Assembly: GCA_043800345.1 (NCBI GenBank)
Contig: JAZDNB010000030.1
Location: 91 to 64,090 of the forward strand
Length of the DNA stretch: 64,000 nucleotides
Reading direction: 5' to 3'
Origin: Candidatus Omnitrophota bacterium
GTDB lineage: Bacteria; Omnitrophota; Gorgyraeia; VGKN01
Positions 4,820 through 53,200 of the stretch are shown in pieces. The position numbers and the translations under genes were made by a program. Under the pieces are notes generated by a model, which did no database searches, was not told the DNA's origin, and saw nothing but the letters and a program-made list of their open reading frames with translations. The first letter of the stretch is position 1, and each line of letters opens with the position of its first letter.

Positions 4820-5388
4820 GTTATAACCCTCCTATTCTTCCACAGATAACTTATCCCGGAGTAAAGGGTAAGAATTATCGTAACCGTCATCATGCCATAT
4901 AGTATAGCGTGCGATATGGTTTCAAAAGTCAAGGTTTGGTAGCCCGATTTTAAGAAATGGCCCTTAAGTATAAGATATATAAGAATTGATATTACCACCA
5001 CAAACTGGGAAACAGTCTTATGTTTACCTTCTTTTTGCGCCTCTAAAACCACGGATTTTGATGCCGCAAAAACCCTTAGCCCCGTTATGACGAGCTCTCT
5101 TAATATTATAACAACTACCATCCATGCAGGAATAATTTTTAGCTCCACAAATGCCATGAAACTTGCAAGTATCAATATCTTATCGGCGATAGGATCCATC
5201 AATTTACCGAAATTAGTTATCTGGTTTCTTTCGCGCGCTATTTTTCCGTCATACCAGTCAGTCAGCATTGCGGCTAAAAAAATAAATAATGCAACATACT
5301 TCCATATCACACCTTGCATAAAGAGAAATACCATATATATGAAAGTAAATACAATCCTCAATATCGTTAACTTATTAGGCAGATTCAT
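4816..5388 (-). CDS. pgsA: CDP-diacylglycerol--glycerol-3-phosphate 3-phosphatidyltransferase
   Basis: 190 aa with NLPNKLTILRI...DWYDGKIAR...GKLMDPIADK (CDP-alcohol phosphatidyltransferase motif) and multiple TM helices. Confidence 0.9.
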   Translation of the reverse strand: MNLPNKLTILRIVFTFIYMVFLFMQGVIWKYVALFIFLAAMLTDWYDGKIARERNQITNFGKLMDPIADKILILASFMAFVELKIIPAWMVVVIILRELVITGLRVFAASKSVVLEAQKEGKHKTVSQFVVVISILIYLILKGHFLKSGYQTLTFETISHAILYGMMTVTIILTLYSGISYLWKNRRVIT

Positions 5389-6775
5389 CTACGGGGGCTC
5401 CTACTAAATCATACTCAAGCGTATCAATAATTTTTACTTTTACAAACTTCCCAACTTCTATTTTTGATTTTTGATTTTTGGATTTTGATTTTACATACAC
5501 CATACCATCCACCTCCGGTGCGTCAAATTCTGTCCGTGCCAGAAATGTCCCAGGATCGTTGTTATTTTTTTCATCGATGAGCACGTTGAGGGTTTGTCCT
5601 AAAAATTTCTCGTTTTTTACCCTAGAAATTTCCTGTTGAACTTTCATAATTTCATCAAAACGCTCTTTTTTTATCTTTTCAGAAACCTGTCCTTTAAAAC
5701 CAAACGCCGGGGTACCTTCTTCCCGAGAATATAGAAACACCCCTAGTCGTTCAAATCCAATTTCACGTATAAAATCACGGAGTTCTTGAAATTCAACCTC
5801 TGTTTCTCCGGGAAAACCTACTATCAAAGAGGTTCTTATCGCTAGCCCGGGAATACGTTTTCTTAACTTTTCAATAAGTTTAATTATACCACTTTTAGTT
5901 ATGTTCCTATTCATGTTTTTAAGAATTTTATCATTTATATGCTGGATTGGCAAATCAACATATCGGCATATAACACGTGCACCTTGCATAACCTCTATGA
6001 GAGAATCCTCGATATGGGCAGGATGGGCATAGAGCAATCTTATCCAGCCGAAGGTGTTAAGGGCACTAAGTCTTTTAAGGAGTTCTGTGATTTTTGGTTT
6101 TTTATACAGATCCGTACCGTAGAGCGTAGTGTCCTGACCAATTAATACTATTTCTTTTAAGCACCTATCCTTTGACAGACTTTCGGCCTCCTTTATAATA
6201 GAGGTAAGATCTCTGCTCCTAAAGCTACCTCTCAGTGCTTTTATGATACAGTAGCTGCAATTATTACCGCAACCTTCGGATATCTTTATGTATGCATAGT
6301 GGGGAGGCGTTAGCATAACCCTCGGACTCATATGGTCATAGAGAAATGCCGGCCTTTTCTCGATGTTTATAGTATGCGCATAGCGTGCCGATACATTCTT
6401 AATTACATCTGCTATTCCCACAAAATCGGATGTTCCTAAAAAAGCATCTACTTCAGGTAGTTCTTTTTTAAGTTCGCCCTCATATCTCTGCGAAAGACAT
6501 CCCGTAACAACAATATTTTTTAGATTGCCCTCTTTCTTTAGACGTATTACCTTAAGAATAATATCTATTGATTCCTGTGTGGCATCTTTAATAAAGCCGC
6601 ATGTATTTATGATAGCGATATCAGAATTTTCCATGTTCTCTTCTATTATGTAACCTTTTTTTTTAAGAATGCCCATCATTACCTCTGTGTCCACAAGGTT
6701 CCTGGGACATCCGAGGCTCAAGAAACTGATTCGCTCTGCTTTATGTAGCATATCTACCGTCTTTCTATTAAGCAT
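5375..6775 (-). CDS. rimO: Ribosomal protein S12 methylthiotransferase (radical SAM MTTase)
   Basis: 466 aa with the N-terminal ISFLSLGCPRNLVDTEVM (UPF0004), the radical-SAM CGNNCSYC motif and a C-terminal TRAM-like domain. Confidence 0.8.
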   Translation of the reverse strand: MLNRKTVDMLHKAERISFLSLGCPRNLVDTEVMMGILKKKGYIIEENMENSDIAIINTCGFIKDATQESIDIILKVIRLKKEGNLKNIVVTGCLSQRYEGELKKELPEVDAFLGTSDFVGIADVIKNVSARYAHTINIEKRPAFLYDHMSPRVMLTPPHYAYIKISEGCGNNCSYCIIKALRGSFRSRDLTSIIKEAESLSKDRCLKEIVLIGQDTTLYGTDLYKKPKITELLKRLSALNTFGWIRLLYAHPAHIEDSLIEVMQGARVICRYVDLPIQHINDKILKNMNRNITKSGIIKLIEKLRKRIPGLAIRTSLIVGFPGETEVEFQELRDFIREIGFERLGVFLYSREEGTPAFGFKGQVSEKIKKERFDEIMKVQQEISRVKNEKFLGQTLNVLIDEKNNNDPGTFLARTEFDAPEVDGMVYVKSKSKNQKSKIEVGKFVKVKIIDTLEYDLVGAPVDESA

Positions 6776-6860
6776 ATCGTGCGGTAACTCAAAATTAACA
6801 CAATTCCCTATCTAATATATACTAACTTTAAGAAACTTGCAAAGTTTAAATAGAAGAGAA

Positions 6861-6978
6861 GATGAAGCTCCACGGCTTAACAGCCGTGGTTTCTTGCTTT
6901 TTGGTCTCGTGCCATATGGCACAGGCTCATGGAACGGAATCCCGCCCGTCCCGCAAAGCGGGACTGGGTGCGGGATAA
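6861..6978 (+). repeat. 118-bp three-hairpin repeat, copy 1
   Basis: ATGAAGCTCCACGGCTTAACAGCCGTGG...ATCCCGCCCGTCCCGCAAAGCGGGACTGGGTGCGGGATAAA. Lies in the rodZ/rimO intergenic gap and is near-identical to the copies at 26837, 41778, 48242 and 50056. Confidence 0.95.
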
Positions 6979-7006
6979 ATGTGGGAAAGGCTGCCTACGG
7001 TATAAC

Positions 7007-7738
7007 TTATTTTGGAAGTTTCATACCCTCGTGGGTAATGAGGATATTTTTCATCACGCCCCTGCCGGGCGAGCCAAGGTTGTGGCCATTTAAATTTAAC
7101 TCAAGGCTAGCGGCATTGCCAACCCATAACACCATTTCTTCTTTTGCCTGCAAATTTATTGATGAACCAGCCTTTAAGATACTCTGATATACGATCTTCC
7201 CGTCACATTTGATATGCATCCAGGTATCCTGGCTGGCTTTTGCGGTAAGCTGCAATATTTCATTTTTTTTCACCAGAAGAATTGGCTTCTCCGCTTTTTT
7301 AACTGTCACAAAAGGAATTTCTGTTTTTATGGAAGGCTCAGAACTTTTTTTGCTCACAAAAATTTTTGACAGTCCGAACGCTACCAATGAAATCACGACA
7401 ATTCCTGCTACAATAATAGTAACGAGCATAACGGGGGTTTTTTTCGGTATTTCAGAGTCGATTTTTTCATCTTCGGTTTTTATTTCCAATTCCTGAGGAG
7501 GAACTTCAGGATTGAGCACGTTATATTCATTCAGCAAAGGTTCCGGGTCAAGTCCCACATACTGGGCATATTGTTTAATAAAACCCTTCACATAGGTTGG
7601 GTTGGGAAGCCTTTCAAACGCTTCCTCTTCAAGGCTCACCAGGAATTTCATTTGAATCTTTGTGGCACGCTGAAGTTCTTCGAGCGTTATGTTTTTTTCT
7701 TCTCTTGCTTTTTTTAATGTCTGTCCTATTATAGCCAT
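7007..7738 (-). CDS. rodZ: RodZ-like cytoskeleton protein (HTH + TM + DUF4115)
   Basis: N-terminal HTH IGQTLKKAREEKNITLEELQRATKIQMKFLVSLEE, a central TM helix and a C-terminal beta domain. Confidence 0.7.
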   Translation of the reverse strand: MAIIGQTLKKAREEKNITLEELQRATKIQMKFLVSLEEEAFERLPNPTYVKGFIKQYAQYVGLDPEPLLNEYNVLNPEVPPQELEIKTEDEKIDSEIPKKTPVMLVTIIVAGIVVISLVAFGLSKIFVSKKSSEPSIKTEIPFVTVKKAEKPILLVKKNEILQLTAKASQDTWMHIKCDGKIVYQSILKAGSSINLQAKEEMVLWVGNAASLELNLNGHNLGSPGRGVMKNILITHEGMKLPK

Positions 7739-7739
7739 T

Positions 7740-9962
7740 TTATTCTTCTTTATCTCTTTGTTCTATCTCTTCGATGTTACTAACCAGAATTTCACGCGGC
7801 TTGCTTCCCCTAAAAGGCCCAATAATACCTTCTTCTTCCATAAGATCTATGAGCCTGGCCGCCCTCGTATAACCAAGTCTTAGGCGCCGTTGGAGAATAG
7901 AGATCGAGGCCTGGCCCGTTTCTATTACCAGCTTGGCCGCCTCTTCAAAAAGTTCGTCCTTAGGCTGGTCTTTGAGAGAATAGGCCTTGCTCTGTTCTTT
8001 TAAAATTTCTTCGTCATATACGGCCTCTCGCTGTGCTTTAATAAAATTAACTATTTTTTCCAACTCCTTATCGGAGATAAGGCAACCCTGGGCTCTTACA
8101 GGCTTAGCCTGTCCCGGTTTTAAAAATAACATATCTCCCCTTCCTAAAAGCTTATCTGCCCCATTCATATCAAGGACCGTTCGTGAATCTACTTTTGATG
8201 CAACTTTAAACGATATCCTCGCAGGAAAGTTTGCCTTGATTACTCCCGTGACGACATCAACTGACGGCCGTTGCGTCGCCAGGATAATATGGATTCCCAC
8301 GGCCCTTGAGAGCTGGGCAAGCCTCGTTATGGCTTCTTCGATATCACGCGACGCAACAAGCATAAGATCGGCAAGCTCATCTATAATAACAATTATATAA
8401 GGAAGTACCGACCATGTAATTTCCCCTTCTTCCTTATTTTCCTCATCTTTTGATGTTTTTACTTTTTCATTATAGATAGCTATATTGCGCACACCGAGTT
8501 TTGCAAATAATTTATATCTTTCCTCCATCTCGTTAACCAGCCATGCAAGCGCTCCGGATACCTTTTTGGCATCTGTCACCACAGGGCAAAGCAAGTGGGG
8601 CAGGCCGTTAAACATGGCAAGCTCCACCATTTTGGGGTCAATCATTAAAAATTTAACCTCGTCGGGTGTGGCATTGAATAATATGCTTGTAATAATACTG
8701 TTGACGCATACGGTCTTACCGGAACCTGTGGTGCCGGCTATTAAAAGGTGCGGCATTTCTATTAAATCGGCTATAACCGTTTGTCCCTGGACATCCATGC
8801 CAAGTGCCATCTGTAATTTGCTGGGCGATGCCATAAAGTCCTGTCCGCTTAAGACTTCCTTTAAATATACCAGCGTGGTAACGGTATTTGGCACCTCCAC
8901 GCCGACTCGTGATTTTCCGGGGATAGGGGCAACGATTCTCACGCTCATTGCCTTCATCGTAAGTGCTATATCATCGTTCAGATTTGCAATCCGTTGAACC
9001 TTAACCCCGGGGGCAGGCTCAAGTTCATACATAGTAATGACTGGTCCCCTTTCTATATTTACCACTTTGGCTTCTATACCAAAATCCCCCAATGTCTCCT
9101 CTAACACTTTTGCACTATTCTGAAGATCCTCTTGTATTTTCCTCTCCTCCATAGGAGGCGGAGAATTAAGCAAATCCAAAGCCGGAAGCTTATAGTCTCC
9201 CGTATCGGTCCTTACTGAAACAACCTTTTTTGCTGCTACCGGTTCTTTTTTCTTAAACATTTCCTTTTTAATAATAACCGCCGGTTTTATTTTAAGCCTT
9301 TCTTCCTCATTGAATGGTTTTTCTTCCTTTTCTTCTTTTTTCTTTCCTATTCTAGGTCTCTCTTCTGTTGTAAATATACTTTTTTCTCTCGTCTTTTCTT
9401 CTCTTTTGGCTCTTCCTACCAGGTGCATAATCATCTCCCGAAGAATCTTCAATAATCTGTTTACATAAGGCAGAATAATAAATTCTGTGGATATCAGGAC
9501 AGAAAGCACTATAAAGGTAACAGTTAATATATACGCGCCGGTACCGCCAAAATACTTAAGTAAAATATTCGAAACAAAAAACCCCATATAACCTCCTGCA
9601 TCGAAACGCCGGATGGGATGTTGAAAAAACAAAAGGCTTAAAAACCCCGAGGTAAAACTTACAAAAACAACTGTCCCGATAAGTTTGATATATAACTTTT
9701 GCAATTCAGTCTGAAAAAATCTGCTTAGCGACCAGATAAGGCAAAGTACCGGTATAATAAAAGCTGCTTTCCCAAAGAGGAAAAATACACCGCCTGCAAT
9801 ATATGCCCCAAAGATCCCGATAAAGTTTTTGGCAGGTCTATTGGGGTGAGAGATATACAAGGAGAGATCATTAGGCGTATAGGATATAAAGCTCAGGAAA
9901 AGGAGCACTGAGAGTACAAACAATATTATTGCATAAATCTGTTGCAGATGTTCTTCTTTCAT
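7740..9962 (-). CDS. ftsK: DNA translocase FtsK
   Basis: 740 aa with N-terminal TM helices, a K/E-rich linker, Walker A GTTGSGKTV, the IIDELADLM motif and a C-terminal gamma domain (ISILQRRLRLGYTRAARLID). Confidence 0.95.
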   Translation of the reverse strand: MKEEHLQQIYAIILFVLSVLLFLSFISYTPNDLSLYISHPNRPAKNFIGIFGAYIAGGVFFLFGKAAFIIPVLCLIWSLSRFFQTELQKLYIKLIGTVVFVSFTSGFLSLLFFQHPIRRFDAGGYMGFFVSNILLKYFGGTGAYILTVTFIVLSVLISTEFIILPYVNRLLKILREMIMHLVGRAKREEKTREKSIFTTEERPRIGKKKEEKEEKPFNEEERLKIKPAVIIKKEMFKKKEPVAAKKVVSVRTDTGDYKLPALDLLNSPPPMEERKIQEDLQNSAKVLEETLGDFGIEAKVVNIERGPVITMYELEPAPGVKVQRIANLNDDIALTMKAMSVRIVAPIPGKSRVGVEVPNTVTTLVYLKEVLSGQDFMASPSKLQMALGMDVQGQTVIADLIEMPHLLIAGTTGSGKTVCVNSIITSILFNATPDEVKFLMIDPKMVELAMFNGLPHLLCPVVTDAKKVSGALAWLVNEMEERYKLFAKLGVRNIAIYNEKVKTSKDEENKEEGEITWSVLPYIIVIIDELADLMLVASRDIEEAITRLAQLSRAVGIHIILATQRPSVDVVTGVIKANFPARISFKVASKVDSRTVLDMNGADKLLGRGDMLFLKPGQAKPVRAQGCLISDKELEKIVNFIKAQREAVYDEEILKEQSKAYSLKDQPKDELFEEAAKLVIETGQASISILQRRLRLGYTRAARLIDLMEEEGIIGPFRGSKPREILVSNIEEIEQRDKEE

Positions 9963-13301: not shown

Positions 13302-14234
13302 TTAAAACATAATTGCTTTTGCTATAATCCTATCTTTTTTTAACTGTTTGATAAGAGCATATGGATTCTTAAAATTTTTTTCCTTCCGTATTTTTTTTAT
13401 AAGAGCGATTTCAATATATTTTCCATAAATAACTTTATTAAAACCAAATAAATGAGCTTCTATATATGGTTTTTTCTTTTTACCTGTCTTTAAAAACGTG
13501 GGATTGGTTCCTATATTTACCATTCCCGAATAAACACGCTTTCCGATGCTAGCCCTTATCGCATACACACCATACGGAGGAAATACTTCCTGCGATGTTT
13601 CTATATTTGCGGTAGAAAAACCGAGCTGTTCGCCCCTCGCAAATCCTTTTATCACTTTTCCGAATATGGAATAATCCCGCCCCAGCAATTTCGAGGCTTC
13701 CTGTAAATCTCCCTTAAGAATCCGGGAGCGGATATATGTACTACTTATCGGCTTAGCTTTCATTTTAAGTTCACTTACCGCATGTAATCTAAATCCGAAT
13801 TGTTGCGATAGTTTTTTAAGAAAGAAGATACTGCCTTTTGTCTTAAACCCGAATTTGAAATCCTGCCCTAAAAATAATTCTTTAATCTTCAGGGATGTTA
13901 CCAGTATATCTCTTACGAAAGACAACGCACTCATCCTGGCAAACGTCCTGTCAAATGGTATTACAAGGCAGGCATCAACACCCAGATCTTCTAAGAAGTT
14001 TAACCGTTGCGCAAGGGAAGAAAGAAGTAAGGGTTTAGAAATAGGTTTTATTATTTTTAAAGGATGCGGATAAAATGTAACTACTACGGAGCTGCCATGA
14101 TTTTTCTTTGCCTTTCGGACACAGGCTGCTATGACATGCCTATGCCCCACATGCACTCCGTCAAAAATTCCCACGGTCGCAATCACCGGTTGCTTTAACT
14201 TTTTAATATATGTATAACGTTCAAATATGCGCAT
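13302..14234 (-). CDS. ribF: Bifunctional riboflavin kinase / FAD synthetase
   Basis: 310 aa with GIFDGVHVGHRHV in the adenylyltransferase part and a GFSTANI...riboflavin kinase part. Confidence 0.9.
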   Translation of the reverse strand: MRIFERYTYIKKLKQPVIATVGIFDGVHVGHRHVIAACVRKAKKNHGSSVVVTFYPHPLKIIKPISKPLLLSSLAQRLNFLEDLGVDACLVIPFDRTFARMSALSFVRDILVTSLKIKELFLGQDFKFGFKTKGSIFFLKKLSQQFGFRLHAVSELKMKAKPISSTYIRSRILKGDLQEASKLLGRDYSIFGKVIKGFARGEQLGFSTANIETSQEVFPPYGVYAIRASIGKRVYSGMVNIGTNPTFLKTGKKKKPYIEAHLFGFNKVIYGKYIEIALIKKIRKEKNFKNPYALIKQLKKDRIIAKAIMF

Positions 14235-14907
14235 ACTGTAATAAATGAGTGTGCAATGTTTCGGCGGTTAACTTTTTTAACATCTCAAAAGAAATGGCAT
14301 CTTTAAGCATAAAATTTCCTACGGCCAATCTCTGTAAATCTTTTAAACATCCGCCGCATCCCAAGCTATTTCCTATATCCTCGCAGAGTGCTCGGACATA
14401 GGTACCTTTTGAGCACGACACAAAAAAATCAACTTCCGGAAGTCTAATGTTTTGAATTCGTATATCAAATATTTCAATCTCAACAGGTCTTCGTTCGATA
14501 ACCTTGCCCTGCCTTGATAATTCGTAAAATCGTTTTCCCTGTATTCTCTTAGCTGAGACCATGGGAGGAATCTGAAGTAATTTACCCTTGAACGATGAAA
14601 ACACTTTTTTTATTTCATCGGTTTTAATCTCATCGGCTGGTTTTTCCGCAATAATCTTTCCTCCTATATCCTGCGTATCCGTTGTCAAGCCTAAAAGAAG
14701 CGTGGCACTATAATCCTTTTTCATATTGGTTAGCCTGCCTGATAATTTGGTAAAATTACCGAGCAAGAGTATGAGAAGACCTGTGGCATTAGGGTCAAGC
14801 GTTCCGGTATGACCCACTTTCTTTATCTTAAAATGCCGTCTTACAAAATCCACCACGTCATGCGAGGTAAAACCCTTTGGCTTATCAAGCAAAAGCATGC
14901 CGTTCAT
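14221..14907 (-). CDS. truB: tRNA pseudouridine(55) synthase
   Basis: 228 aa containing LLLDKPKGFTSHDVV...GHTGTLDPNATGLL. Confidence 0.9.
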   Translation of the reverse strand: MNGMLLLDKPKGFTSHDVVDFVRRHFKIKKVGHTGTLDPNATGLLILLLGNFTKLSGRLTNMKKDYSATLLLGLTTDTQDIGGKIIAEKPADEIKTDEIKKVFSSFKGKLLQIPPMVSAKRIQGKRFYELSRQGKVIERRPVEIEIFDIRIQNIRLPEVDFFVSCSKGTYVRALCEDIGNSLGCGGCLKDLQRLAVGNFMLKDAISFEMLKKLTAETLHTHLLQYAHI

Positions 14908-14921
14908 GGAGCTCCGCGGGT

Positions 14922-16004
14922 TTATGCCCGCGCTACCTTTCTTTTCGGTTTTCCGTCCGCGGGGCGAAATCCCGCCCGTTTGCCGCAGGCAGACTGGGTG
15001 CGGGATAAGAGCGCGGGGCGAAATCCCGCCCGTTTGCCGCAGGCAGACTGGGTGCGGGATAAGAGTGTTTTTGTTATAACAAGGACTTTTTTTCTGGCTT
15101 CGTCAATCGTCCCTTCCAGTACACAACCACTTGCTGCAGGATGCCCGCCGCCGCCAAACTTTTTTGCAAGACTATTCACATCAAAATCGCCTTTTGAACG
15201 GAAACTAACCTTTACCCTGTTCTTGCCGATTTTTCGAAATAACATCGCCACCTTGACACCCTTGAGCGCCCTCGGATAGTTAATAAAGTCCTCCAGTCTC
15301 TCTGTAAGGTTACCACCGAGCTTTGTTAAATCTTCGTCGAGGGCTATATATGCAATCTTTCCCTCTTTTTTGAGGGTAGAGAGTATTTTGTTTAAAAATG
15401 TAATATAAGAAAGCGTGGTGTTGCCATAAACTTTTTCAAAAATGATATGCGGCTTTATATTATGTTTCAATAGTTCGCTTACTATATAATGTGTCTTTGA
15501 AGTAGTATTTGAGTACCTAAACGATCCGGTGTCTGTCAATATTGCCACATATATATTAAGCGCCTCTCTACGTGTAAGTGAAACGCCTAATGCATCAAAC
15601 AATTCATATATAAGCTCTCCTACGCAGGAGGCATGGGGATCCACCCAGTTGGTAGTGCCAAAGTACTCATTACTTATATGGTGATCTATGTTAAGGAGGA
15701 TCTTGGCTGTCTGTATAAACCTTTCTACGGTACCAACCCTTGAAAGAAGCGGACAATCTAATACTACCGCCGCATCAAAACGCAGCTTCTTATTACTACC
15801 ATGCAATATCATACCTTTTTTTGACAAAAAACCAAATTGCCGGCTTGCATCATCATTAAGGATATATACCTTCTTATGGAGCCTTTTTAACAAAGAAGCG
15901 AGCGCTAATTGGCTTCCAATCGCATCGCCTTCGGGATTTATATGAGAGGATATAAGAAAAGTCTTATATTTTTTGATCGCTTCGACAATATGCTGTTTGG
16001 ACAT
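14922..16004 (-). CDS. nrnA: DHH/DHHA1 phosphoesterase (NrnA-like oligoribonuclease/pAp phosphatase) with a repeat-encoded C-terminal extension
   Basis: 360 aa with DHH motifs (SHINPEGDAIGS, NIDHH) and DHHA1 GGGHPAASG. The last ~47 aa (LLSRTQSACGKRAGFRPA x2 + DGKPKRKVARA) are translated from the hairpin repeats at 14938-15066. Confidence 0.8.
   Translation of the reverse strand: MSKQHIVEAIKKYKTFLISSHINPEGDAIGSQLALASLLKRLHKKVYILNDDASRQFGFLSKKGMILHGSNKKLRFDAAVVLDCPLLSRVGTVERFIQTAKILLNIDHHISNEYFGTTNWVDPHASCVGELIYELFDALGVSLTRREALNIYVAILTDTGSFRYSNTTSKTHYIVSELLKHNIKPHIIFEKVYGNTTLSYITFLNKILSTLKKEGKIAYIALDEDLTKLGGNLTERLEDFINYPRALKGVKVAMLFRKIGKNRVKVSFRSKGDFDVNSLAKKFGGGGHPAASGCVLEGTIDEARKKVLVITKTLLSRTQSACGKRAGFRPALLSRTQSACGKRAGFRPADGKPKRKVARA
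14938..15066 (+). repeat. Truncated relative of the 118-bp element: linker remnant plus two tandem 54-bp hairpin units inside the nrnA 3' end
   Basis: Units 14959-15012 and 15013-15066 are 53/54 identical: GCGGGGCGAAATCCCGCCCGTTTGCCGCAGGCAGACTGGGTGCGGGATAAGAG. The outer stem is the same as in hairpin 3 of the 118-bp element, and the inner stem is a different complementary pair. Confidence 0.9.
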
Positions 16005-25646: not shown

Positions 25647-26804
25647 TTAATTTAGGAGGAGGATTTTTGCATAGGTGACGGTAGAATCGCCGAAGCGTTC
25701 ATTTATTGAATCAACGGCACGGTTAAGGAGAATATTTTTTTTATCACATTCAAAAAGTAACCCCTGCTGAGGATTTACTATTAAACCAGAAAGGCCAACC
25801 CCTAAAAGCCTCACGGGAGCCTTTAGTTTTATATAAGAAAATAAATAAAGAACGTTTTTATAAATAGACTCGGTGGAGTACATGTAATCAGATAAAGTTT
25901 TTTGTCTGGAAAATGTGCTTAAATCTTTATAGCGTATGGTAAGTTGTATAACTTGCGCCGAAAGGTTATCTTTTCTTAATCTCGTTCCCACCATTTCAGA
26001 TAACATCAAAAGATACCCCGATATAACTTCTTGAGAGTATACATCTTTCGAAACCGTTATACTGTGCCCTATGGATTTCTGTGTTAAACCATCACTGCTT
26101 GAAACAACCGAATCATCTTCCCCTCTGCACACATTGTATAGCCAGTTCCCTAGTATGCCGAAATATCTTACCAGTAAATCGTTGGGTAACCCCATGAGTT
26201 GGCCACAGGTATATATGCCGAGTCCGTTTAACCGTTGCTTAGTCTTAAGACCGATACCCGCAATCTTCTCTACGGGCAGATTATGTAAAATAAGCGGCGC
26301 ATTTTCTTTTTTTATTATTAAAAGACCGTCGGGTTTTGATAATTTTGATGCGAGTTTTGCAAGCATCTTGTTTGGCGCAATACCGATGGAGGCAGTAATA
26401 TCGAAAGACTGTTTTATTGTTTCTTTTATGCGATGGGATATTTCTTTTATAAAAATTACATCACTACCGCTTACGTCAAGATAGAACTCATCAATAGAAG
26501 ATTGTTCCAGCTTTTCACTATAAGACTTTAATAACTCCGATATGCAATGTGAGGTATGTAAATATTTTGCGGTATCGGCAGGGATAAATATTGCCTTCGG
26601 ACAAAGTTTATACGCCATCCATGAGGACATACCGGATTCGATACCGAATTTTTTTGCTTCGTAAGATGCCGAACATACCACGGTCCTCTGCCTATCAGGC
26701 CTTCCCCCTACAATTACCGGTTTACCTTTAAATCGAGGATTAACCGCCTGTTCTATGGAAGCAAAAAAAGCATCCATATCTAAATGTAATATGAAATTGT
26801 TCAT
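25647..26804 (-). CDS. dinB: DNA polymerase IV (Y-family)
   Basis: 385 aa containing ILHLDMDAFFASIEQAVNPRFKGKPVIVGG...SIDEFYLDV. Confidence 0.9.
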   Translation of the reverse strand: MNNFILHLDMDAFFASIEQAVNPRFKGKPVIVGGRPDRQRTVVCSASYEAKKFGIESGMSSWMAYKLCPKAIFIPADTAKYLHTSHCISELLKSYSEKLEQSSIDEFYLDVSGSDVIFIKEISHRIKETIKQSFDITASIGIAPNKMLAKLASKLSKPDGLLIIKKENAPLILHNLPVEKIAGIGLKTKQRLNGLGIYTCGQLMGLPNDLLVRYFGILGNWLYNVCRGEDDSVVSSSDGLTQKSIGHSITVSKDVYSQEVISGYLLMLSEMVGTRLRKDNLSAQVIQLTIRYKDLSTFSRQKTLSDYMYSTESIYKNVLYLFSYIKLKAPVRLLGVGLSGLIVNPQQGLLFECDKKNILLNRAVDSINERFGDSTVTYAKILLLN

Positions 26805-26836: not shown

Positions 26837-26954
26837 ATGAAGCTCCACGGCTTAACAGCCGTGGTTTCTTGCTTTTCGGTCTCGTGCCATATGGTACAGG
26901 CTCATGGAGCGGAATCCCGCCCGTCCCGTAAAGCGGGACTGGGTGCGGGATAAA
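26837..26954 (+). repeat. 118-bp three-hairpin repeat, copy 2
   Basis: Full-length copy between orf94 and dinB. Differs from the consensus by C59T and C93T, both in stems and both leaving G-T pairs. Confidence 0.95.
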
Positions 26955-27018: not shown

Positions 27019-27303
27019 TTATTCTACCCATACTTCCTCCATATACCATGTTAATTCCCTGTCAGAAAAATATATCTGATAAATGGTGCCTCCTATATCA
27101 ACAGAAAAATAATGCCTCATGCTATCTCCGACCCTATCTTTCCAGCGATACGTAAGATGCTCTATCTTATGAAGAGTCCCCTTCCATTTAAACCAGACTG
27201 GTTTTGGGCCCTTATCAAATACAACACCCACGCTTATAGGTTCATTAAGCCTACCGCTACTGGCGGGTAATTTTCTATCCCACCTGGAGTTTTTGTTAAA
27301 CAT
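27019..27303 (-). CDS. Hypothetical 94-aa protein encoded between lexA and dinB
   Basis: The ORF overlaps the lexA stop by 8 nt. It is Trp/Tyr-rich (VWFKWKGTLHKIEHLTYRWKDRVGDSMRHYFSV...YQIYFSDRELTWYMEEVWVE) and I recognise no family. Confidence 0.6.
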   Translation of the reverse strand: MFNKNSRWDRKLPASSGRLNEPISVGVVFDKGPKPVWFKWKGTLHKIEHLTYRWKDRVGDSMRHYFSVDIGGTIYQIYFSDRELTWYMEEVWVE

Positions 27304-38562: not shown

Positions 38563-38641
38563 TGGTCGGGGCGGACAGACTTGAACTGTCGACCTCAGCG
38601 TCCCGAACGCTGCGCTCTAAGCCAAACTGAGCCACGCCCCG
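38563..38641 (-). tRNA. tRNA-Pro (anticodon CGG), CCA encoded
   Basis: The minus strand reads CGGGGCG-TG-GCTC-AGTTTGGCTTA-GAGC-G-CAGCG-TTCGGGA-CGCTG-AGGTC-GACAG-TTCAAGT-CTGTC-CGCCCCG-A-CCA. This is a complete cloverleaf with the anticodon loop TT-CGG-GA. Confidence 0.9.
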
Positions 38642-41570: not shown

Positions 41571-41606
41571 AAAATGTAAAACCCACCATTTCGAAATGGT
41601 GGGTTT
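41571..41606 (-). terminator. Terminator-like hairpin (expression platform) about 25 nt upstream of the lipoprotein start
   Basis: Minus strand AAACCCACCATTTCGAAATGGTGGGTTT followed by TACATTTT. It shares CCATTTCG/CGAAA with the first aptamer-like hairpin. Confidence 0.55.
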
Positions 41607-41619
41607 TATCCCCTACTTC

Positions 41620-41767
41620 TGCGGTAGCCCAGCCGTCCTTTCCATGAGGACCCGAGGCTTTGCCCCGAATGCAACCTGTATCCCGGCTACGCTTCGGGGT
41701 CCCTAAGCACAATATCTAAAAACTTTTGCTTGTAGGACGTCCCATTCTTTCGAAATGGTTTGCCTTT
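41620..41767 (-). promoter_or_regulatory. Candidate c-di-GMP-I (GEMM-I)-like riboswitch with a 75-nt internal insertion
   Basis: Minus-strand block 1 (41767-41738) is AAAGGCAAACCATTTCGAAAGAATGGGACG. Block 2 (41663-41620) is GCAAAGCCTCGGGTCC-TCATGGAAA-GGACGGCTGGGCTACCGCA. Both resemble, from memory, the two halves of the V. cholerae Vc2 / GEMM-I core. This is a GC-rich island in an AT-rich leader. Confidence 0.45.
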
Positions 41768-41777
41768 ATCGCATCAT

Positions 41778-41945
41778 ATGAAGCTCCACGGCTTAATGGT
41801 TCGACTCCGCTCACCATCCTTCGAACCATCCTGAGCTTGTCGAAGGACAGCCGTGATTTCTAACTTTTCGGTCCGTGCCATATGGCACAGGCTCATGGAG
41901 CGGAATCCCGCCCGTCCCGTAAAGCGGGACTGGGTGCGGGATAAA
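41778..41945 (+). repeat. 118-bp three-hairpin repeat, copy 3 (with a 51-nt nested insertion and a 1-nt deletion)
   Basis: Same termini as the other copies. An insertion at 41797-41847 sits inside the loop of hairpin 1, and consensus T46 is deleted. Confidence 0.9.
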
Positions 41946-42095
41946 CTTTATATCTATTATTAATATAACATGAAATTTTAAAAACTCAAGGGAGGGCAAT
42001 GTTTCTAGGCGTGTGTGTATTACCGCGGAGCTATAGGTAATATGCGGTTTCACATCACCGCTTTGATGTAGTGATGGGGTTTTTACAATAACCTT

Positions 42096-42875
42096 TTAAG
42101 AAGCTATAGATTTTTTATACATATGTTCTACAATCCGCCGCGCCACCAGGTCTATTTGAGTACACATCGGTAACACAGAACTAATAAAAAATATCTGTTC
42201 TGACACATTATGGCGATCTTCAAGCTGAGATATTTTATGCAAAAAATCATCCAGAGGAACAACAGTCTCTAAATAATGTTTAAAGGTATATAATGTTAAA
42301 GAAAATAAATATTCTCCCATGGCATTTTTGCATAAATCGGCCTGCATACTAGCAAGTGTACAATCAATATTCATTTCTGCCTCAGTTGGCAACTCTTGTT
42401 TTAAAACGTGAAAGATTCTACATAGTATAATACCGCTTATCTCTGTCTGTGCTTTGTAAAGAACTTCCCGATATTTATCCTTGCTATGGCTTTTTTGAGC
42501 AAATTCCAGCTCCAGGTGCAAAAGTTTATTTTTTTCTATATCCTCAAATTCAGTATATGACATAAGGCTTATTTTCTCTAATTCTCTTGTGGAAATTACA
42601 CTGTTTGCCTGTTGTTGTTTTTTTGATGGGTCTATGTTCGAATAATATGCTAATAGATAAAGCTCTAAAAAGATACAATAGAAACGTCTGCTAAATTCAA
42701 AAATATATTTATAAGACCTTTGGAATTTCAGCAACGCCTCGTCTTTGAGTTGATATTTTTTTATCATCTTCCCGGAGACATATTTTGCAAGGCTTGCCTT
42801 TTCTAGCATCATTTTCTTAAGCACTTCGGGATCATCTACTATATATTCCATTTTGCGTTCTTGGCTTATATGCAT
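42096..42875 (-). CDS. Hypothetical helical protein (259 aa)
   Basis: ORF only; no recognised motif. Last gene of the rib-linked string. Confidence 0.5.
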   Translation of the reverse strand: MHISQERKMEYIVDDPEVLKKMMLEKASLAKYVSGKMIKKYQLKDEALLKFQRSYKYIFEFSRRFYCIFLELYLLAYYSNIDPSKKQQQANSVISTRELEKISLMSYTEFEDIEKNKLLHLELEFAQKSHSKDKYREVLYKAQTEISGIILCRIFHVLKQELPTEAEMNIDCTLASMQADLCKNAMGEYLFSLTLYTFKHYLETVVPLDDFLHKISQLEDRHNVSEQIFFISSVLPMCTQIDLVARRIVEHMYKKSIAS

Positions 42876-47994: not shown

Positions 47995-48178
47995 AGTCTT
48001 ATCTTCTCCCCTCTAGACTTTACCGCACAGAAGCGGTTCTACAGTAATAGTAGAAACTATTGGCCCTGGAATTTCACCAGCTCTGTTCCGAAGAAATCTC
48101 GCTCACAAAATCTCTTCATTCGGAACTCGCAGGCTTTCACTGCCAGTCGGGAATTTCACCCGATCCCGAAGATTAGAG
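47995..48178 (-). promoter_or_regulatory. FMN riboswitch (RFN element)
   Basis: The minus strand carries CTTCGGGATCGGGTGAAATTCCCGACTGGCAGT, GCTGGTGAAATTCCAGGGCCAATAG and AGTCTAGAGGGGAGAAGATAAG, the hallmark RFN blocks. Located upstream of ribBA. Confidence 0.9.
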
Positions 48179-48182
48179 TATA

Positions 48183-48211
48183 ACTATAACAGCATAAAAT
48201 TACCTTGTCAA
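48183..48211 (-). promoter_or_regulatory. rib operon promoter
   Basis: Minus strand TTGACA (48211-48206), a 17-nt spacer, then TATAGT (48188-48183). The predicted start falls at the 5' edge of the riboswitch. Confidence 0.65.
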
Positions 48212-48232
48212 GGCAAAATTTCTTGATATAAT
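48205..48232 (+). promoter_or_regulatory. Plus-strand promoter sharing its -35 with the rib promoter
   Basis: TTGTCA (48205-48210), a 16-nt spacer, then TATAAT (48227-48232). The predicted start at ~48239 lies 2-3 nt before repeat copy 4. Confidence 0.5.
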
Positions 48233-48241
48233 ATCACACAG

Positions 48242-48359
48242 ATGAAGCTCCACGGCTTAACAGCCGTGGTTTTTGACTTTTCGGTCTCGTGCCATATGGC
48301 ACAGGCTCATGGAGCGGAATCCCGCCCGTCCCGCAAAGCGGGACTGGGTGCGGGACAAA
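48242..48359 (+). repeat. 118-bp three-hairpin repeat, copy 4
   Basis: Full-length copy. The linker is variant (TTTTTGAC) and the element ends GGGACAAA instead of GGGATAAA. Confidence 0.95.
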
Positions 48360-48444
48360 AGAAGAAAATTTTTTAGGTGCACTGAAGATCAACTCTAGGG
48401 AAGTATAATTATCCCGCATCAAAATAGAGGAAGCATACAAGCAT

Positions 48445-49599
48445 ATGGAAAATAATCTGGATAGGTCAAAGGCAGGCCTTATTGTGCTCTATGAAATCTC
48501 TTGTGCAATGAGAACCACGCTTAAACTAGAACACATACTTTATATTATACTCACCGGTGTTACATCGCATGAGGGACTTGGGTTTAACAGGGCAATGCTA
48601 TTTCTGGTTAACGAAGACGAAAACTTGCTTGAGGGAAAAATGGGGATTGGCCCTGATACCGGGGAAGATGCAAAAAATATATGGCAGCAGATAGAGGCCG
48701 ATAAAATGACGCTCGAGGACTTGATAACCGCATATGACAGGCTTAAGGCACAAACCGATCCCCAGCTTAATAATCTGGTAAAAAGTATTAAAATACCCTT
48801 GAATGAGAGTTCCGGCATCCTTGCATTAACCGCTCTTGAAGGAATGCCCTTTGAAATAAGCGAGGATATCTCGAAAGAAAAGGTTGACGATGCTACGCTA
48901 AGGATGCTCCAGGTAACCGAATTCGTAACGGTCCCCTTAAAGGCAAAAGACAAGGTAATAGGGGTCATACTTGCCGATAACTTATATACAAAACAACCCA
49001 TCGCCAAGGAAGATGTAAAACTTCTTACTATGTTTGCAAATCAAGCAGGTCTTGCTATAGAAAATTCGCGGCTTTATGAACAGACGGTATTTCTATCAAA
49101 CGTTGACTCTTTAACCGGGCTCTTTAACCACGGGTATTTTCAGACGACTTTAAGTAAAAAACTCAAAGAAGCCGAATCGGAAAATAAACCGCTTTCACTT
49201 ATAATGTGCGATATAGATTTTTTTAAAAATTTTAACGATTCACTCGGTCATCAAAGCGGAGACAAGGTCTTAGCCAGGGTAGCATATCTCATTAAACATT
49301 CACTGCGGGAGACCGACATCGCCACGCGGTACGGAGGAGAAGAATTTGCCGTTATCTTACCCGATACTGACACAGAAGAAGCATATCGCTTAGCTGAGAG
49401 AATAAGAAATACCGTTGAAAAACACAATATTATAAACCCGGATAACCCTTCTATAAAGGCACCTACCATTAGTGCCGGTATCGCCAGTTTCCCGAAGGAT
49501 GCGCGCATGAAAGAAGAACTTATAAAGGCAGCTGATAGTGCGCTCTATAAAGCTAAAGAATTCGGAAGAAACAAAATAATTTGTTTTAGTAGTCAGTGA
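48445..49599 (+). CDS. GAF-domain diguanylate cyclase (GGDEF)
   Basis: 384 aa with an N-terminal GAF-like domain and a C-terminal RYGGEEFAVILPDT active site with DSLTGLFNH. Confidence 0.9.
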   Translation: MENNLDRSKAGLIVLYEISCAMRTTLKLEHILYIILTGVTSHEGLGFNRAMLFLVNEDENLLEGKMGIGPDTGEDAKNIWQQIEADKMTLEDLITAYDRLKAQTDPQLNNLVKSIKIPLNESSGILALTALEGMPFEISEDISKEKVDDATLRMLQVTEFVTVPLKAKDKVIGVILADNLYTKQPIAKEDVKLLTMFANQAGLAIENSRLYEQTVFLSNVDSLTGLFNHGYFQTTLSKKLKEAESENKPLSLIMCDIDFFKNFNDSLGHQSGDKVLARVAYLIKHSLRETDIATRYGGEEFAVILPDTDTEEAYRLAERIRNTVEKHNIINPDNPSIKAPTISAGIASFPKDARMKEELIKAADSALYKAKEFGRNKIICFSSQ

Positions 49600-49616: not shown

Positions 49617-49988
49617 CTATTTTTTCAGGATGTGATCATCCGCGGTACCTTTTTCCCCGTCTAACCCCGCACCAATACTACAGGTAGGATCAGTTCCTAT
49701 GCAATTATAAGTGTAGGTACCGCCAGCCGGACAGACCGGAGTTCCTCCTTTTATATATGCCTCTATCTCCATAATATCATCTGGCAGGGGAATTGCTTTC
49801 GATATATCACTTCCCATTGCCCATTGTTCTTTAGCAAAGGCTATCGAATGTAAATTTTCAACACAGATACGGGCATCTTTAAATACCTTGGCTTTTTTAA
49901 AATGCGGTAGAGAGATAAGCGTCAATGTCCCGAGGATTACCGCAATCATTGCTGCCTCAATATATACAAGAAAATTTTTATTATCCAT
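49617..49988 (-). CDS. Pilin/pseudopilin-like protein with an atypical N-terminus
   Basis: NFLVYIEAAMIAVILGTLTLISLPHFKKAKVFKDARICVENL resembles a type IV pilin N-terminal helix but lacks the canonical G-1 / E+5 arrangement. Confidence 0.5.
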   Translation of the reverse strand: MDNKNFLVYIEAAMIAVILGTLTLISLPHFKKAKVFKDARICVENLHSIAFAKEQWAMGSDISKAIPLPDDIMEIEAYIKGGTPVCPAGGTYTYNCIGTDPTCSIGAGLDGEKGTADDHILKK

Positions 49989-50055
49989 TTAGGGCTCGTA
50001 CTAAATATCCGTGATACCTGATTATCTAAATACCTATGAGCGCTTTATTAAATCT

Positions 50056-50173
50056 ATGAAGCTCCACGGCTTAACAGCCGTGGTTTCTTGCTTTTCGGTC
50101 TCGTGCCATATGGCACAGGCTCATGGAGCGGAATCCCGCTCGTCCCGCAAAGCGGGACTGGGTGCGGGATAAA
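50056..50173 (+). repeat. 118-bp three-hairpin repeat, copy 5
   Basis: Full-length copy between the smc stop and the pilin-like gene start. Carries a single stem change, C85T. Confidence 0.95.
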
Positions 50174-50224
50174 TAAAATGTATGAAGTAGCCGGATAAAA
50201 AGATACTGACACATATGCCATATA

Positions 50225-53200
50225 TTATGTGACGGTTTCTTTGAGGGGTTCTTTCTGATGAGGTTTTCTATCGCCGAATTTTACCGATACGATTTGAGAA
50301 ATACCTGACTCCTCCATGGTAATCCCATACATCACATCTGCGGTAGTAATAGTCTTCTTATTATGAGTAATGATTATAAACTGCGACATCTTAACAAAGT
50401 CTTGAAGCACTTTACTAAAACGGTCTACATTGGACTCATCAAGCGGTGCGTCTATTTCATCAAGTACACAGAAGGGACTTGGTTTTACTTTAAAAATTGC
50501 AAAAAGAAGGGCAATGGCGGTTAATGCCTTTTCGCCGCCTGATAATAACGATATATTCTGCAGTCTCTTCCCTGGGGGTCGTGCTACTATTTCAATACCG
50601 CTTTCCAGTACATCTTCGCTGTCAATAAGTAAAAGTTCTGCATCCCCTCCACCAAAAAGCAACCTAACAAAATTCCTGAATTCTAGCTGTATCTTCCGGA
50701 ATGTTTCCATAAAGAGGTCTTTGGTAGTTTTGTTTATTTTGGCTATCGCCTTAAGAAGGGAATCTTTTGCATTTACAAGATCCTGTCTTTGGCTTTCAAG
50801 AAAATTATACCGCTCCAGAAGTTCCTTATGTTCCTCAATAGCTACAAGATTCACCGTACCCATAGATTCAAGTTTTGCCTTTAGGGTTTCTATCTGAGCG
50901 ATTGTATGCTCTTTATCAAAATGTTCGTCTATTGTATCAAGCACCAGTTCTGTTTTATATACTTCATTTATACGATTTTTCATATTTTCGCATCGTAAAT
51001 TCAACTGTGCAAGCTCTACCTCAATACCCTGCAATCTCTTACGTAGGGAATCAATCTCTGTTTCTTTAGACGTAAGAGAATCTTTTAAAGAAACTATTTC
51101 TGAACTCATATATTCCCGCAGAGAGACCTTTGCGGTTAAATCTTCACTTAACCTGGAAGTTGTCTTGGTTATGTGCTCATTATAGTGAGTAAATTCCTCT
51201 ATTTCCTTTTTTAAAATCCCTAATTTGTTATTATATTCGACTGCCGCCTGCGTTTTTAACTCCTGCGTAGTCATCTGCTCTGAAAAATCGAGTTTTAATT
51301 TTTCAAGTCTATCCCTGCGACTGCTTTCCCTGTCTGATACATTGCCAAGTATGGTTCTATCTTCTGTAAGCTGAAGCAAGAGCCGCTCTTTTTCTTTTAA
51401 ATTTTGTTCTATCACTCCTTGCAAATTCTGCAGCGTATGCTCCGAATCTTTTTGCCGGCTTTCCGTCTGAAGGAGCACCGTTTGGTCGCTTAGCTCTTTT
51501 TTCTTAAGCGCTTCTTCCTCTTCTATAATTTCCTCTATCTCTAAATTCACAAGAGAGAGTTCTTCTTTAAGTCTTTCCATGCCCGCAGTTATATTTTCAT
51601 GTTCTTTTTCCTTGGTGAGAAATCTTTGAGACTCTCTTTTTAAATTCTCTTCTTCCGCTTGCAGCGCGGTGCGTAATACTTCTTGTTCCTGCTTAGCCTT
51701 TAATTGCTCTTCTTCCAATATCCCGTTTTCTCTCTTAAGTTGGGTAATAAGCTCAGACAATTCCTTAATCTTTGATTCGCGCGCCAGGATGCTCGTATCT
51801 TCGGTAATAGCCGCATAACCTGCCGATATAAACCCAAATTCAACCATTTCCTTTTGTTCGGTTATAAATTTGGTATGCTTATCTTTACAAAGGGCGAGTG
51901 CCGTATCAATGTCTTTTACTAGGTAAGCATTTCCTAACAAATGCTGTATTAAATTATCAAGTCTTTCTTCGTTCTTAACAAGGCTCAAGATGGGTACTGT
52001 CGTCGCATTGTCGTACGGGAAAGACGGCTCTAGAGGGCCGGTAAAGGTGCTGAGTATAAGAAACTTTGCAAAGCCGACTTGTTTATCTTTTAAAAAATCA
52101 ATAAGCCTTTTGGCATCTTCTTCTTTTTCAACCACGATAGCTTCAAAGTTACCGCCAAGCGCACGTTCTACTATAAGTTCAAAATTTCTCTTTGGCTCGA
52201 TAATCTCAGAAAGTACGCCGAGAACTCCGCGCGAATTAAGTGCCCCTGTCTGGAGTGCCTCAAGAAGAATCTTCGTACCGGCAGAAAAACCCTCATGTCT
52301 TTTTTTAAGATCAAGCAAAAACTCAATCTTAGATTCATACCCTGCGAGCTTCGTATTATTCTTATTAAGGGAGGTTTCTCTATCTCTGATCTCTGCCTCT
52401 CGCGCATTGTTTTTTCCCTGAACTTGACCGCAGGCATCTTCAATTCCTTTGACCAGTTTCTTTAGTTCGGCGAGTTCTGCCAAAGATATGTTGAACCTGC
52501 CTTCCAATGCTGCGTATTCCTTAGATACATTTTCTTTTTCAATATTAAGGCGTCTGCGACGAGACGAAATATTCTGCAGGTTTGCCGTTAACTTCACAAG
52601 CTCATTTTTCACATTGGCATGTTGTGCGCTCAGCTCTAACAGAGAGGTCTTATCGTACACTATTTTTTCTGTACTTTGTTTAATCAGAATATTTGTTTCG
52701 CTGAGCTTACGTTCATTTTCTAAAACTTTCTGCTGTTTCTCTTGCTTTTCATCAATAATTTTCTGGAGTTCTTCCGCTGCTTTTTGCGTTTCGGATTCCA
52801 ACACCCCTATTTTATCTTGTATGGAGGTAACTTCATTTTCTATCGTAGCAATGTTAGCCATATATTCGGCTATTCTTTCCTGGTTACTTGAAATTTTATT
52901 TATATTCAGCGTATACTGGTTTTGAATATTGAGGTCCTCTCTTTCGATAGTATCAATTTCTTTCTCCAAATTTGCAAAATCAGCGTTGAGTGATTCGGCA
53001 TTCTTTTTTAGCTCGCCGTATGCACCTTCGGCCTGGGAGGTTACTTCTAAAAGACTTTTCAGCTCATCTTCCAGCTTTACTTTCTGGCCAGAAAGTTTCA
53101 TATATTCATAGGAACCCACTTTCACTTCAAGATTTTTCAGTTCTTCAAACCTTCCTTTATACACTTCGGCTTTTTTAGCCTGACGTTCGATAGAATTTAT

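Follow-up and report, generated by a model that had tools for sequence, protein, structure and literature searches.

The 64,000-nucleotide stretch of Candidatus Omnitrophota DNA analysed here (contig JAZDNB010000030.1 of assembly GCA_043800345.1; "the window" below means this whole stretch) carries six copies of a short GC-rich repeat. The repeat represents a previously undescribed family of non-coding elements that form hairpins and appear to be mobile. As far as sampled, the family is confined to Candidatus Omnitrophota, and its copies in this genome are unusually dense and recent. Comparison with loci outside the window showed that the copies are independent insertions at unrelated intergenic sites, neither duplicated genes nor coding sequences. 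What the family appears to conserve is the pairing of its hairpins and not the duplex sequence. Our leading explanation, to which we give about an even chance, is that the repeats are non-autonomous structured elements mobilised in trans by an enzyme that recognises the hairpin, perhaps of the IS200/IS605 insertion sequence (IS) type or of the RAYT type (the tyrosine transposases associated with repetitive extragenic palindromes, REPs).

Copies of the repeat in the window

An earlier note on this DNA had described a 118-bp repeat with three hairpins, present in five copies on the + strand. The five near-identical copies (c1 to c5, Table 1) are all present on that strand, four of them exactly where they had been placed; the first needed a shift of one base, to 6862-6979 from 6861-6978. 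A 34-nt core pattern allowed up to three mismatches matched the window five times, against 0 in 100 shuffles. When the five copies were aligned together with 60-nt flanks, their borders were sharp, identity beginning at ATGAAGCTCC and stopping at GCGGGATAAA, and the flanks were mutually unrelated. The window copies lie 2-20 kb apart among housekeeping genes, and the neighbours named earlier were recovered: RodZ and RimO, orf94 (downstream of LexA) and DinB, SMC and orf123, and RibBA with its FMN riboswitch facing the GGDEF gene.

Copies c1 to c5 differ at 3-7 of 118 positions. In the linker (positions 32-35), where differences had been said to cluster, positions 32, 34 and 35 hold 5 of the 14. 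The alignment also bore out the 51-nt insertion and 1-nt deletion reported for c3, the insertion (about 41795-41845) falling in the loop of hairpin 1. Within the insert are two further hairpins, TGGTTCGA/TCGAACCA and CCTTCGA/TCGAAGG; no second copy of the insert was found in the window. It is true that all substitutions in stems are transitions, but this is no structural evidence. One of the 12 variable positions is the 1-nt deletion; among the other 11, which carry substitutions, 10 show transitions whether they lie in stems or not, so the pattern reflects mutation bias and not stem constraint. Similarly, four copies are indeed exactly 118 bp, but this sameness of length reflects youth rather than constraint, relatives elsewhere being 62-115 nt long.

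The count of five had overlooked a sixth, divergent member, winB, which opens with ATGGAGCTCCGCGGGTTTATGCCCGCG and continues into two tandem hairpin-3 units. It lies at the junction of a DHH/DHHA1 gene (14922-16004, -) and truB (14221-14907, -), antisense to both. Its hairpin 3 has the same outer stem (ATCCCGC/GCGGGAT) and the same bulges (CC versus TGGGT) as the main family, with an inner stem GTTTGCC/GGCAGAC replacing GTCCCGC/GCGGGAC. Because the DHHA1 Pfam domain finishes at residue 307 of the 360 in the DHH open reading frame (ORF), the last ~48 codons of the called ORF are winB read backwards; this tail is likely either an annotation artefact or a real C-terminal tail made by the insertion. 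On the other side, the truB start codon overlaps the first bases of winB, which provides GGAG 5-8 nt upstream of that start.

Relatives elsewhere and the family core

We scanned 185,579 species genomes (one genome per species) for the hairpin-3 pattern and a metagenome collection for a stricter form of it. The species genomes gave seven true loci (six labelled Omnitrophota and one Planctomycetales), the other matches being mostly chance occurrences in GC-rich genomes. The metagenomes yielded 13 true loci, of which 10 were distinct, and the two scans merged to 15 distinct loci outside the window, cited below by L numbers. Carrier genomes besides the present one include JAGVOB01, VGKF01, JACRHQ01, CAIRWO01, JBFZAX01 and CAYIMR01. 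A covariance model (CM) found exactly one copy in each outside locus, versus six in the window. The distribution is patchy, the family not being found in the great majority of Omnitrophota sampled.

Full members share AUGAA (GUG in two), a helix that we call P1 (GCUCCA...UGGAGC), GGAA, the bulged hairpin 3, and UAAA (UAGA or UAAG in a few). The conserved hairpin has 16 bp; its outer stem is fixed, as are the U and UG bulges of the 3' strand. What P1 encloses at its apex varies from 3 nt (L088) or a 4-nt loop (L070) to hairpin 1 (most members), hairpins 1 and 2 (the window subfamily) and a further 51 nt (c3); L034 and L086 are reduced to the hairpin-3 module. Hairpin 2 was not present in any outside relative, so it is private to this genome, and so is the 118-bp form. 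The three-hairpin unit is thus valid for the window subfamily, but the family-wide unit is P1 with hairpin 3, hairpins 1 and 2 being optional inserts at the P1 apex. Truncated, solo hairpin-3, tandem-duplicated (winB) and nested-insert (c3) forms all occur.

Folding of the window copies reproduced the three hairpins proposed earlier (-54 to -58 kcal/mol, z about -5), and the reverse complement folded equally well. P1 is the minimum free energy helix in L070, L083, L084, L091, L094 and c3. The CCA at the base of hairpin 1 is able to pair with either of two UGG triplets, so hairpin 1 and P1 are partly alternative, and a second alternative pairing joins GGGAUUCC with GGAAUCCC.

Both alternative structures were scored on an alignment of 11 distinct members. 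With extended hairpin 1 and hairpin 3, 94.0% of cells were paired, versus 37-48% when the 3' partners were slid, and 10 pairs were changed on both sides versus 3.0 expected. With P1, upper hairpin 1 and hairpin 3, the values were 95.7% versus 37-48%, and 11 versus 2.6. In neither case did any of 500 shuffles reach the observed number. P1 (columns 6-11/71-76) was 90.5% paired, with three pairs changed on both sides; compensatory examples are GCCCAAC/GUUGGGC in L062 and GCUCU/AGAGC in L083. Four of the five upper pairs of hairpin 1 also showed compensatory changes, and the inner stem of hairpin 3 covaries (GUUUGCC/GGCAGAC in winB, GCUCUG/UAGAGC in L083, GCCCCG/CGGGGC in L058), its distinct paired forms including GCCCCG, GCUCUG, GUCCGCC and GUUUGCC. 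The check for stem covariation that the earlier note had proposed therefore gives compensatory changes in P1, hairpin 1 and inner hairpin 3, but only through relatives in other genomes and the sixth copy. The outer stem and bulges of hairpin 3 are invariant across members, and both database scans had required them; a possible sequence anchor outside hairpin 3 would be GAAGCTCCACGGCTTAAC. In the robust stems 10-13 G.U pairs stand against 3-4 A.C mismatches, one G.U pair occurring in 10 of the 11 sequences. This excess modestly favours the + strand as the folding strand, as RNA or as single-stranded DNA.

Table 1. Members of the family in the window, and the parts of the element as numbered in copy c1
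Feature	Position	Strand	Context or composition	CM score
Copy c1	6862-6979	+	Spacer between rodZ (7007-7738, -) and rimO (5375-6751, -), antisense to the operon	105.8 bits
Copy c2	26837-26954	+	Gap between orf94 (27019-27303, -; downstream of lexA) and dinB (25647-26804, -), antisense	
Copy c3	41778-41945	+	Downstream of orf259 (42096-42875, -), antisense	
Copy c4	48242-48359	+	Sole sense window copy; before the GGDEF gene (48445-49599, +)	
Copy c5	50056-50173	+	Gap between smc (50225-53803, -) and orf123 (49617-49988, -), antisense	
winB	14906-15065	+	5' part and two tandem 54-nt hairpin-3 units (14958-15011, 15012-15065)	95.9 and 39.9 bits
P1, 5' strand (GCUCCA)	6867-6872	+	Pairs with 6930-6935 (UGGAAC in c1; consensus UGGAGC)	
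Hairpin 1 (CCACGGCU-UAAC-AGCCGUGG)	6870-6889	+	Base competes with P1 for CCA	
U-rich tail TTTCTTGCTTTT	6890-6901	+	Directly after hairpin 1	
Hairpin 2 (GGUCU-C-GUGCC AUAU GGCAC-AGGCU)	6903-6927	+	Window subfamily only	
Conserved 3' module	6936-6979	+	GGA, hairpin 3 (AUCCCGC-CC-GUCCCGC AAA GCGGGAC-UG-GG-U-GCGGGAU), AAA tail	

Insertion sites and ends of the element

The rodZ/rimO spacer, with c1 inside it, is 255 nt long here. In the nearest relatives sampled, whose loci also have L numbers, it measures 86 nt (L097), 84 nt (L099) and 6 nt (L103), and the covariance model found no copy of the element in ~80 kb of syntenic DNA from these three. The RimO adjoining c1 is 100% identical to a protein from a Candidatus Omnitrophota MAG, and its next-best database relatives are only 64-65% identical. 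The 15 outside members occupy 15 different gene junctions, none orthologous to another. These include S7/EF-G, IF3/L35, SurA/PdxA, KsgA-like/GatC-like, UPF0102/FTCD, regulator/P-II and a site upstream of a tRNA cluster, and in two lineages a copy lies at different junctions of the same surA-pdxA-ksgA operon. Scattered junctions with no orthologous copies are the pattern of a mobile element and not that of an inherited regulatory site. The gene order ribF-rpsO-pnp-bacA-ftsK-rodZ-rimO-pgsA-pgpA is shared with relatives having 57-65% identical RimO, and L103 has far shorter intergenic spacers than the window.

The repeat had been said to have neither terminal inverted repeats nor a consistent target-site duplication. 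We searched for both and found neither: an inverted-repeat search yielded internal hairpins only, and no duplication of fixed length was consistent in the flanks of the five young copies and the 15 outside ones. The left junction reads RTGR in 19 of 19 members. In L033, L040, L083, L084 and L088 the upstream ORF stops at the TGA that forms bases 2-4 of the conserved RTGA. The S7 protein of L083 fits positions 1-148 of the 148 in its Pfam profile, and IF3_C of L033 fits 1-86 of 86 to the last residue. Both proteins are complete, so their stop codons stand at the natural place, which random insertion of an element carrying its own ATGA could not yield. Two models fit equally well: the RTGA may belong to the host, with insertion just after it, or the element may run from TGA to GCGGGA and have inserted just before a host TAA(A). 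Both give a sensible empty site; for winB the reconstructed site is an ATGA in which the stop codon of the DHH gene overlaps the truB start.

Orientation relative to transcription

Five of the window copies (c1, c2, c3, c5 and winB) are antisense inside - strand operons and c4 lies between divergent promoters. The 15 outside copies comprise 12 in sense between co-directional genes, one between convergent genes and sense to the upstream one, one antisense (L058) and one unclassifiable. The shared + orientation to which attention had been drawn therefore extends to all six window copies but is no property of the family, 12 of the 15 outside copies being sense to their flanking genes. The six window copies share their orientation amid a uniformly negative GC skew; in every locus the skew tracks the gene strand, so it cannot separate transcription from replication.

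A + strand promoter-like sequence (TTGTCA-16-TATAAT with TG, 48205-48232) ends 9 nt before c4, which in sense is predicted to make up the initial 118 nt of the leader of the GGDEF mRNA. Promoter-like sites within 80 nt upstream were seen only at c4 and, weakly, at c1. The region 48183-48232 holds back-to-back near-consensus promoters, each matching at 11 of 12 positions; the - strand one (TTGACA-17-TATAGT) lies upstream of the FMN riboswitch (47997-48177) and the rib operon.

A consensus terminator scan flagged hairpin 1 with its U-rich tail in c4 and c5. Under a re-implementation of the same rule, c1, c2, c4, c5, L017 and L089 pass in sense and no member passes in antisense. The U-run is interrupted, and other members miss by one T (5 versus 4 T in 8). 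Hairpin 3 has a U-run on neither strand. Hairpin 1 and its tail together look like an intrinsic terminator on the + strand only. The sense copies at the tightest junctions (L033, L034, L083, L086 and L088) are all without hairpin 1 and the U-tract; L034 lies upstream of a tRNA cluster and the other four lie between genes of essential function. We hypothesize that sense insertions of the full element in operons would be polar and would be lost, leaving the antisense copies seen in this genome.

A proposed mobile element recognised through its hairpin

As we picture it, the bulged hairpin, folded on a single strand that is probably the + strand, would be recognised by an enzyme encoded elsewhere, most likely a HUH/Y1 nuclease-transposase of the RAYT or IS200/IS605 type that acts on single strands. 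Insertion would proceed with neither inverted repeats nor target duplication, beside a stop-like tetranucleotide (RTGA on the left or TAAA on the right), so that the upstream gene would keep its stop codon. The subfamily that gained hairpin 2 would have spread recently in this genome, and copies within operons would survive only in antisense, because in sense hairpin 1 and the U-rich tail would terminate transcription. The element may act at the DNA or the RNA level.

Several observations weigh against this explanation. The HUH/Y1 enzyme is itself pure inference by analogy: in line with the earlier note, which saw no transposase in the window, none was found among the 20 flanking or small window ORFs scanned with Pfam, and the fetched outside loci showed no transposase of any kind. 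The left (P1/hairpin 1) and right (hairpin 3) hairpins share no sequence, whereas the two ends of IS200/IS605 elements carry similar hairpins. The termini given here are putative. That hairpin 3 never varies in its outer stem or bulges is not independent evidence, since both scans had demanded them. Other carrier genomes have only one or two exact-pattern matches each, which fits a single-copy functional RNA too. The primary sequence of the element is highly conserved although the RimO proteins of its hosts reach 64% identity at best, and conservation across such divergent hosts needs either horizontal transfer or strong constraint. A replication-strand rule predicts a uniform orientation relative to genes, with which the antisense window copies and the sense outside copies conflict; uniformity of that kind was not seen. 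The terminator argument is weak, given the rule used (5 versus 4 T in 8) and the small numbers, and the antisense orientation in the window is only partly explained.

Alternative explanations

The best of the alternatives, though on the unlikely side, is that the element is a cis-acting RNA module of operon transcripts (an intercistronic stabiliser, processing site, attenuator, protein-binding site or unrecognised self-cleaving ribozyme) that is copied occasionally, the window copies being a secondary, largely non-functional burst. This would account for the sense copies between co-directional genes, often filling the space from stop codon to ribosome-binding site, for the single copy per locus and few per genome, and for the strong conservation across divergent hosts, in which the unpaired AUGAA, GGAA and UAAA are kept and the stems covary. 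The G.U excess on the + strand, the available alternative pairings and the position of c4 exactly at a predicted mRNA start point the same way. However, the neighbouring genes are functionally unrelated (fusA, rpmI, pdxA, gatC, glnB, FTCD and tRNAs), so a riboswitch-like sensor is unlikely, and antisense orientation relative to transcription is seen in L058 and in five of the six window copies. Length and middle region vary widely, no orthologous site is retained between lineages, no Rfam ribozyme or motif matched with E up to 10, and most Omnitrophota sampled do not have the family.

We also consider a bolder proposal, unlikely as we judge it, in which the core of P1 and bulged hairpin would be either the substrate of an uncharacterised mobilisation system that targets stop codons, or a new class of mobile structured RNA, for example self-cleaving or protein-recruiting, that spreads in sense through Omnitrophota operons. 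In its stop-codon-targeting form, the element would start with TGA and be followed by TAA, so that the targeted gene would never be left without a stop.

It is quite improbable that the repeat is an ordinary cut-and-paste MITE (miniature inverted-repeat transposable element) derived from an IS with a DDE transposase, its terminal repeats and duplication being too short or degenerate to see. The size, the intergenic sites, the sharp borders, the conserved ends around a variable middle and the burst-like set of copies would all suit a MITE, and in roughly half of the copies a TA directly precedes TGAAGC and another follows GCGGGA. But the TA is inconsistent in the youngest copies, c1 and c4 having GA on the left, and the ends are not inverted repeats: when the left end ATGAAGCTCCAC is set against the reverse-complemented right end, 6 of 12 positions agree. 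Moreover, it is hairpin pairing that is conserved and not duplex sequence, and no related IS was found in plasmids or phages. The view that the repeat is no classic MITE or IS end, which the earlier note took for want of terminal repeats and target duplications, stands.

A multi-copy family of small-RNA genes, each with its own promoter, is very improbable. The near-consensus promoter upstream of c4 fits this idea, and hairpin 1 with the U-tract could end a transcript of ~40 nt; but upstream flanks are unrelated, with the promoter-like sites confined to c4 and weakly c1, the c4 promoter is simply that of the GGDEF gene, facing the riboswitch promoter, and outside copies directly follow the stop codon of the upstream gene, where a promoter would not fit. 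Hardly credible at all is a peptide of 38 residues, read from ATG at nt 1 to TAA at nt 115-117: the frame is open in c1, c2, c5, L040, L083 and L089, and nearly all members start with ATG or GTG and end with TAA or TAG, but length modulo 3 among 14 distinct members is 0 in five, 1 in seven and 2 in two, L017 and L084 have internal stops, c3 is frameshifted, c4 has lost its stop, and no ribosome-binding site is conserved before the ATG. A coding reading was rejected on these scattered lengths and on a search of 5.8 billion proteins, in which the five open frames, concatenated, had no match with E up to 1.

Neighbouring features, annotation and significance

The element opens spurious ORFs of 55-156 codons on both strands: 6837-7187 (+), 41811-42053 (-), 48234-48440 (-), 50054-50221 (-) and 14809-15279 (+). 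They share recurrent pseudo-peptides such as IPHPVPLCGTGGIPLHEPVPYGT, and none occurs among the 5.8 billion proteins. In L088 (3688-4695) and L094 (element-oriented 1204-2091) the ATG of the element shares the reading frame of the gene that follows (PdxA in L088), to which ORF callers would therefore give an N-terminal extension of 26-38 residues. Annotation pipelines will propagate such element-born ORFs and the false 48-codon tail of the DHH-family protein.

Near c3, a perfect A-tract/T-tract palindrome, AAAACCCACCATTTCGAAATGGTGGGTTTT (about 41579-41608), lies upstream of a small glycine-rich lipoprotein-like ORF (-) and looks like a bidirectional terminator. The adjoining GC-rich stretch of ~130 nt at 41610-41740 may be structured, and the motif TTCGAAATGG recurs at about 41750.

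Next to nothing has been charted of the mobile DNA and non-coding RNA of Omnitrophota, an uncultured phylum. The family described here offers a concrete, covariation-supported motif that can be searched genome-wide, and a candidate recognition site for a hairpin-binding enzyme. It is also a natural experiment on the tolerance of compact genomes to insertion, with its orientation bias, its loss of the terminator-like arm in tight operons and its stop-preserving junctions.

Comparison with known systems

In the window, Rfam at gathering threshold returned only the FMN riboswitch (47997-48177, -) and a tRNA (38566-38641, -). With E up to 10, the best match to c4 was RAGATH-32, at 17.9 bits versus a threshold of 41.8. 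The element had been called unrecognised, and no Rfam family at gathering or permissive thresholds changes that. Blastn against plasmids and phages gave no match, and the hairpin-3 and 5'-end patterns found in viral contigs either nothing or chance matches in a GC-rich phage. Searching the literature for the sequence strings gave only chance matches in eukaryotic papers, and combined keywords for Omnitrophota or Omnitrophica with MITE or interspersed repeats gave nothing relevant among the papers listed. A tRNA-like origin was rejected, ARAGORN returning only the ordinary neighbouring tRNAs.

ERIC, Correia/NEMIS, RUP and BOX elements are structured repeats of ~100-150 bp in transcribed intergenic regions that can act as terminators or promoters or influence mRNA stability; they have terminal inverted repeats, and most have a TA-like duplication and a recognisable parent IS. 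The present family, in contrast, has neither terminal inverted repeats nor a TA-like duplication. The attC sites of integrons act as imperfect hairpins folded from a single strand, in which extrahelical bases, not the stem sequence, define the strand that is recognised. Here, however, there are no R''/R' cores (RYYYAAC / GTTRRRY), no cassette array and no integrase nearby, and the outer stem itself is conserved.

The REPs bound by RAYT proteins, like the ends of IS200/IS605 elements, are imperfect hairpins with bulges and a tetranucleotide at the foot (PMC3479197), and lineage-specific repeat families with a common foot resemble REP/RAYT systems (PMC3337134). Our family is likewise made of short GC-rich extragenic imperfect palindromes in a compact genome, with neither inverted terminal repeats nor target duplication. 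The 38-nt hairpin 3 with its fixed bulges has GGAA before it and UAAA after it nearly always, a constancy partly fixed by the search pattern. Location within operons, with possible side-effects as terminator or attenuator, is also shared with REPs and bacterial interspersed mosaic elements (BIMEs) (PMC3479197, PMC3337134), as is the lineage-specificity of families, a repeat in L097 sharing the TCCCG/CGGGA foot and TAA tail. This different repeat, in the closest relative genome (L097, GCA_964506845.1), has two sense copies, 79% identical over a shared 56 nt, at 6650-6740 and 9065-9160 (also L098:1790-1885) in the ftsK/rodZ and rimO/pgsA spacers; it reads [AT]GTCCCGAATGT...CTTCGGGATCCCGAAG...ACATTCGGGATAATT, is palindromic overall, and has only that foot and tail in common with hairpin 3.

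Unlike a single REP of 20-40 nt, the element is a composite unit of P1 with its inserts and hairpin 3. Counted as exact-pattern matches, its copies appear to number one or two in most carriers, against six in the 64 kb of the window; REPs reach tens to hundreds per genome. Hosts that are very divergent nevertheless share its primary sequence. Among the 20 window ORFs scanned with Pfam none was a RAYT gene, and the junctions here coincide with stop codons. In contrast to REPINs, hairpin-3 units are single or in direct tandem (winB), never an inverted doublet. The earlier reading of a REP/BIME-like or structured-RNA element is right in that the family is defined by structure and REP-like in spirit, but the REP feature that it does show, a bulged palindrome with a conserved foot, is in part an artefact of the search for relatives.

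Insertion beside a fixed tetranucleotide with no duplication is a hallmark of single-strand transposition of the IS200/IS605 type (PMC3479197). With IS200/IS605 elements and their PATE-type derivatives (palindrome-associated transposable elements), the family shares asymmetric ends, subterminal hairpins and the lack of inverted repeats and duplications; it may also share recognition as a folded single strand, strand-specific behaviour, and insertion beside a specific tetranucleotide, which afterwards resembles a conserved piece of the left end (PMC3479197). It differs in that the hairpin foot lies only 3-8 nt from the end, in having no TnpA or TnpB nearby, and in an orientation relative to replication that looks inconsistent between genomes. 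Membership failed for MITEs, REPINs, IS200/IS605 ends, attC sites and every Rfam family. Taken together, these comparisons suggest, by resemblance and not by demonstration, that the element works most like REP or IS200/IS605-type hairpin elements.

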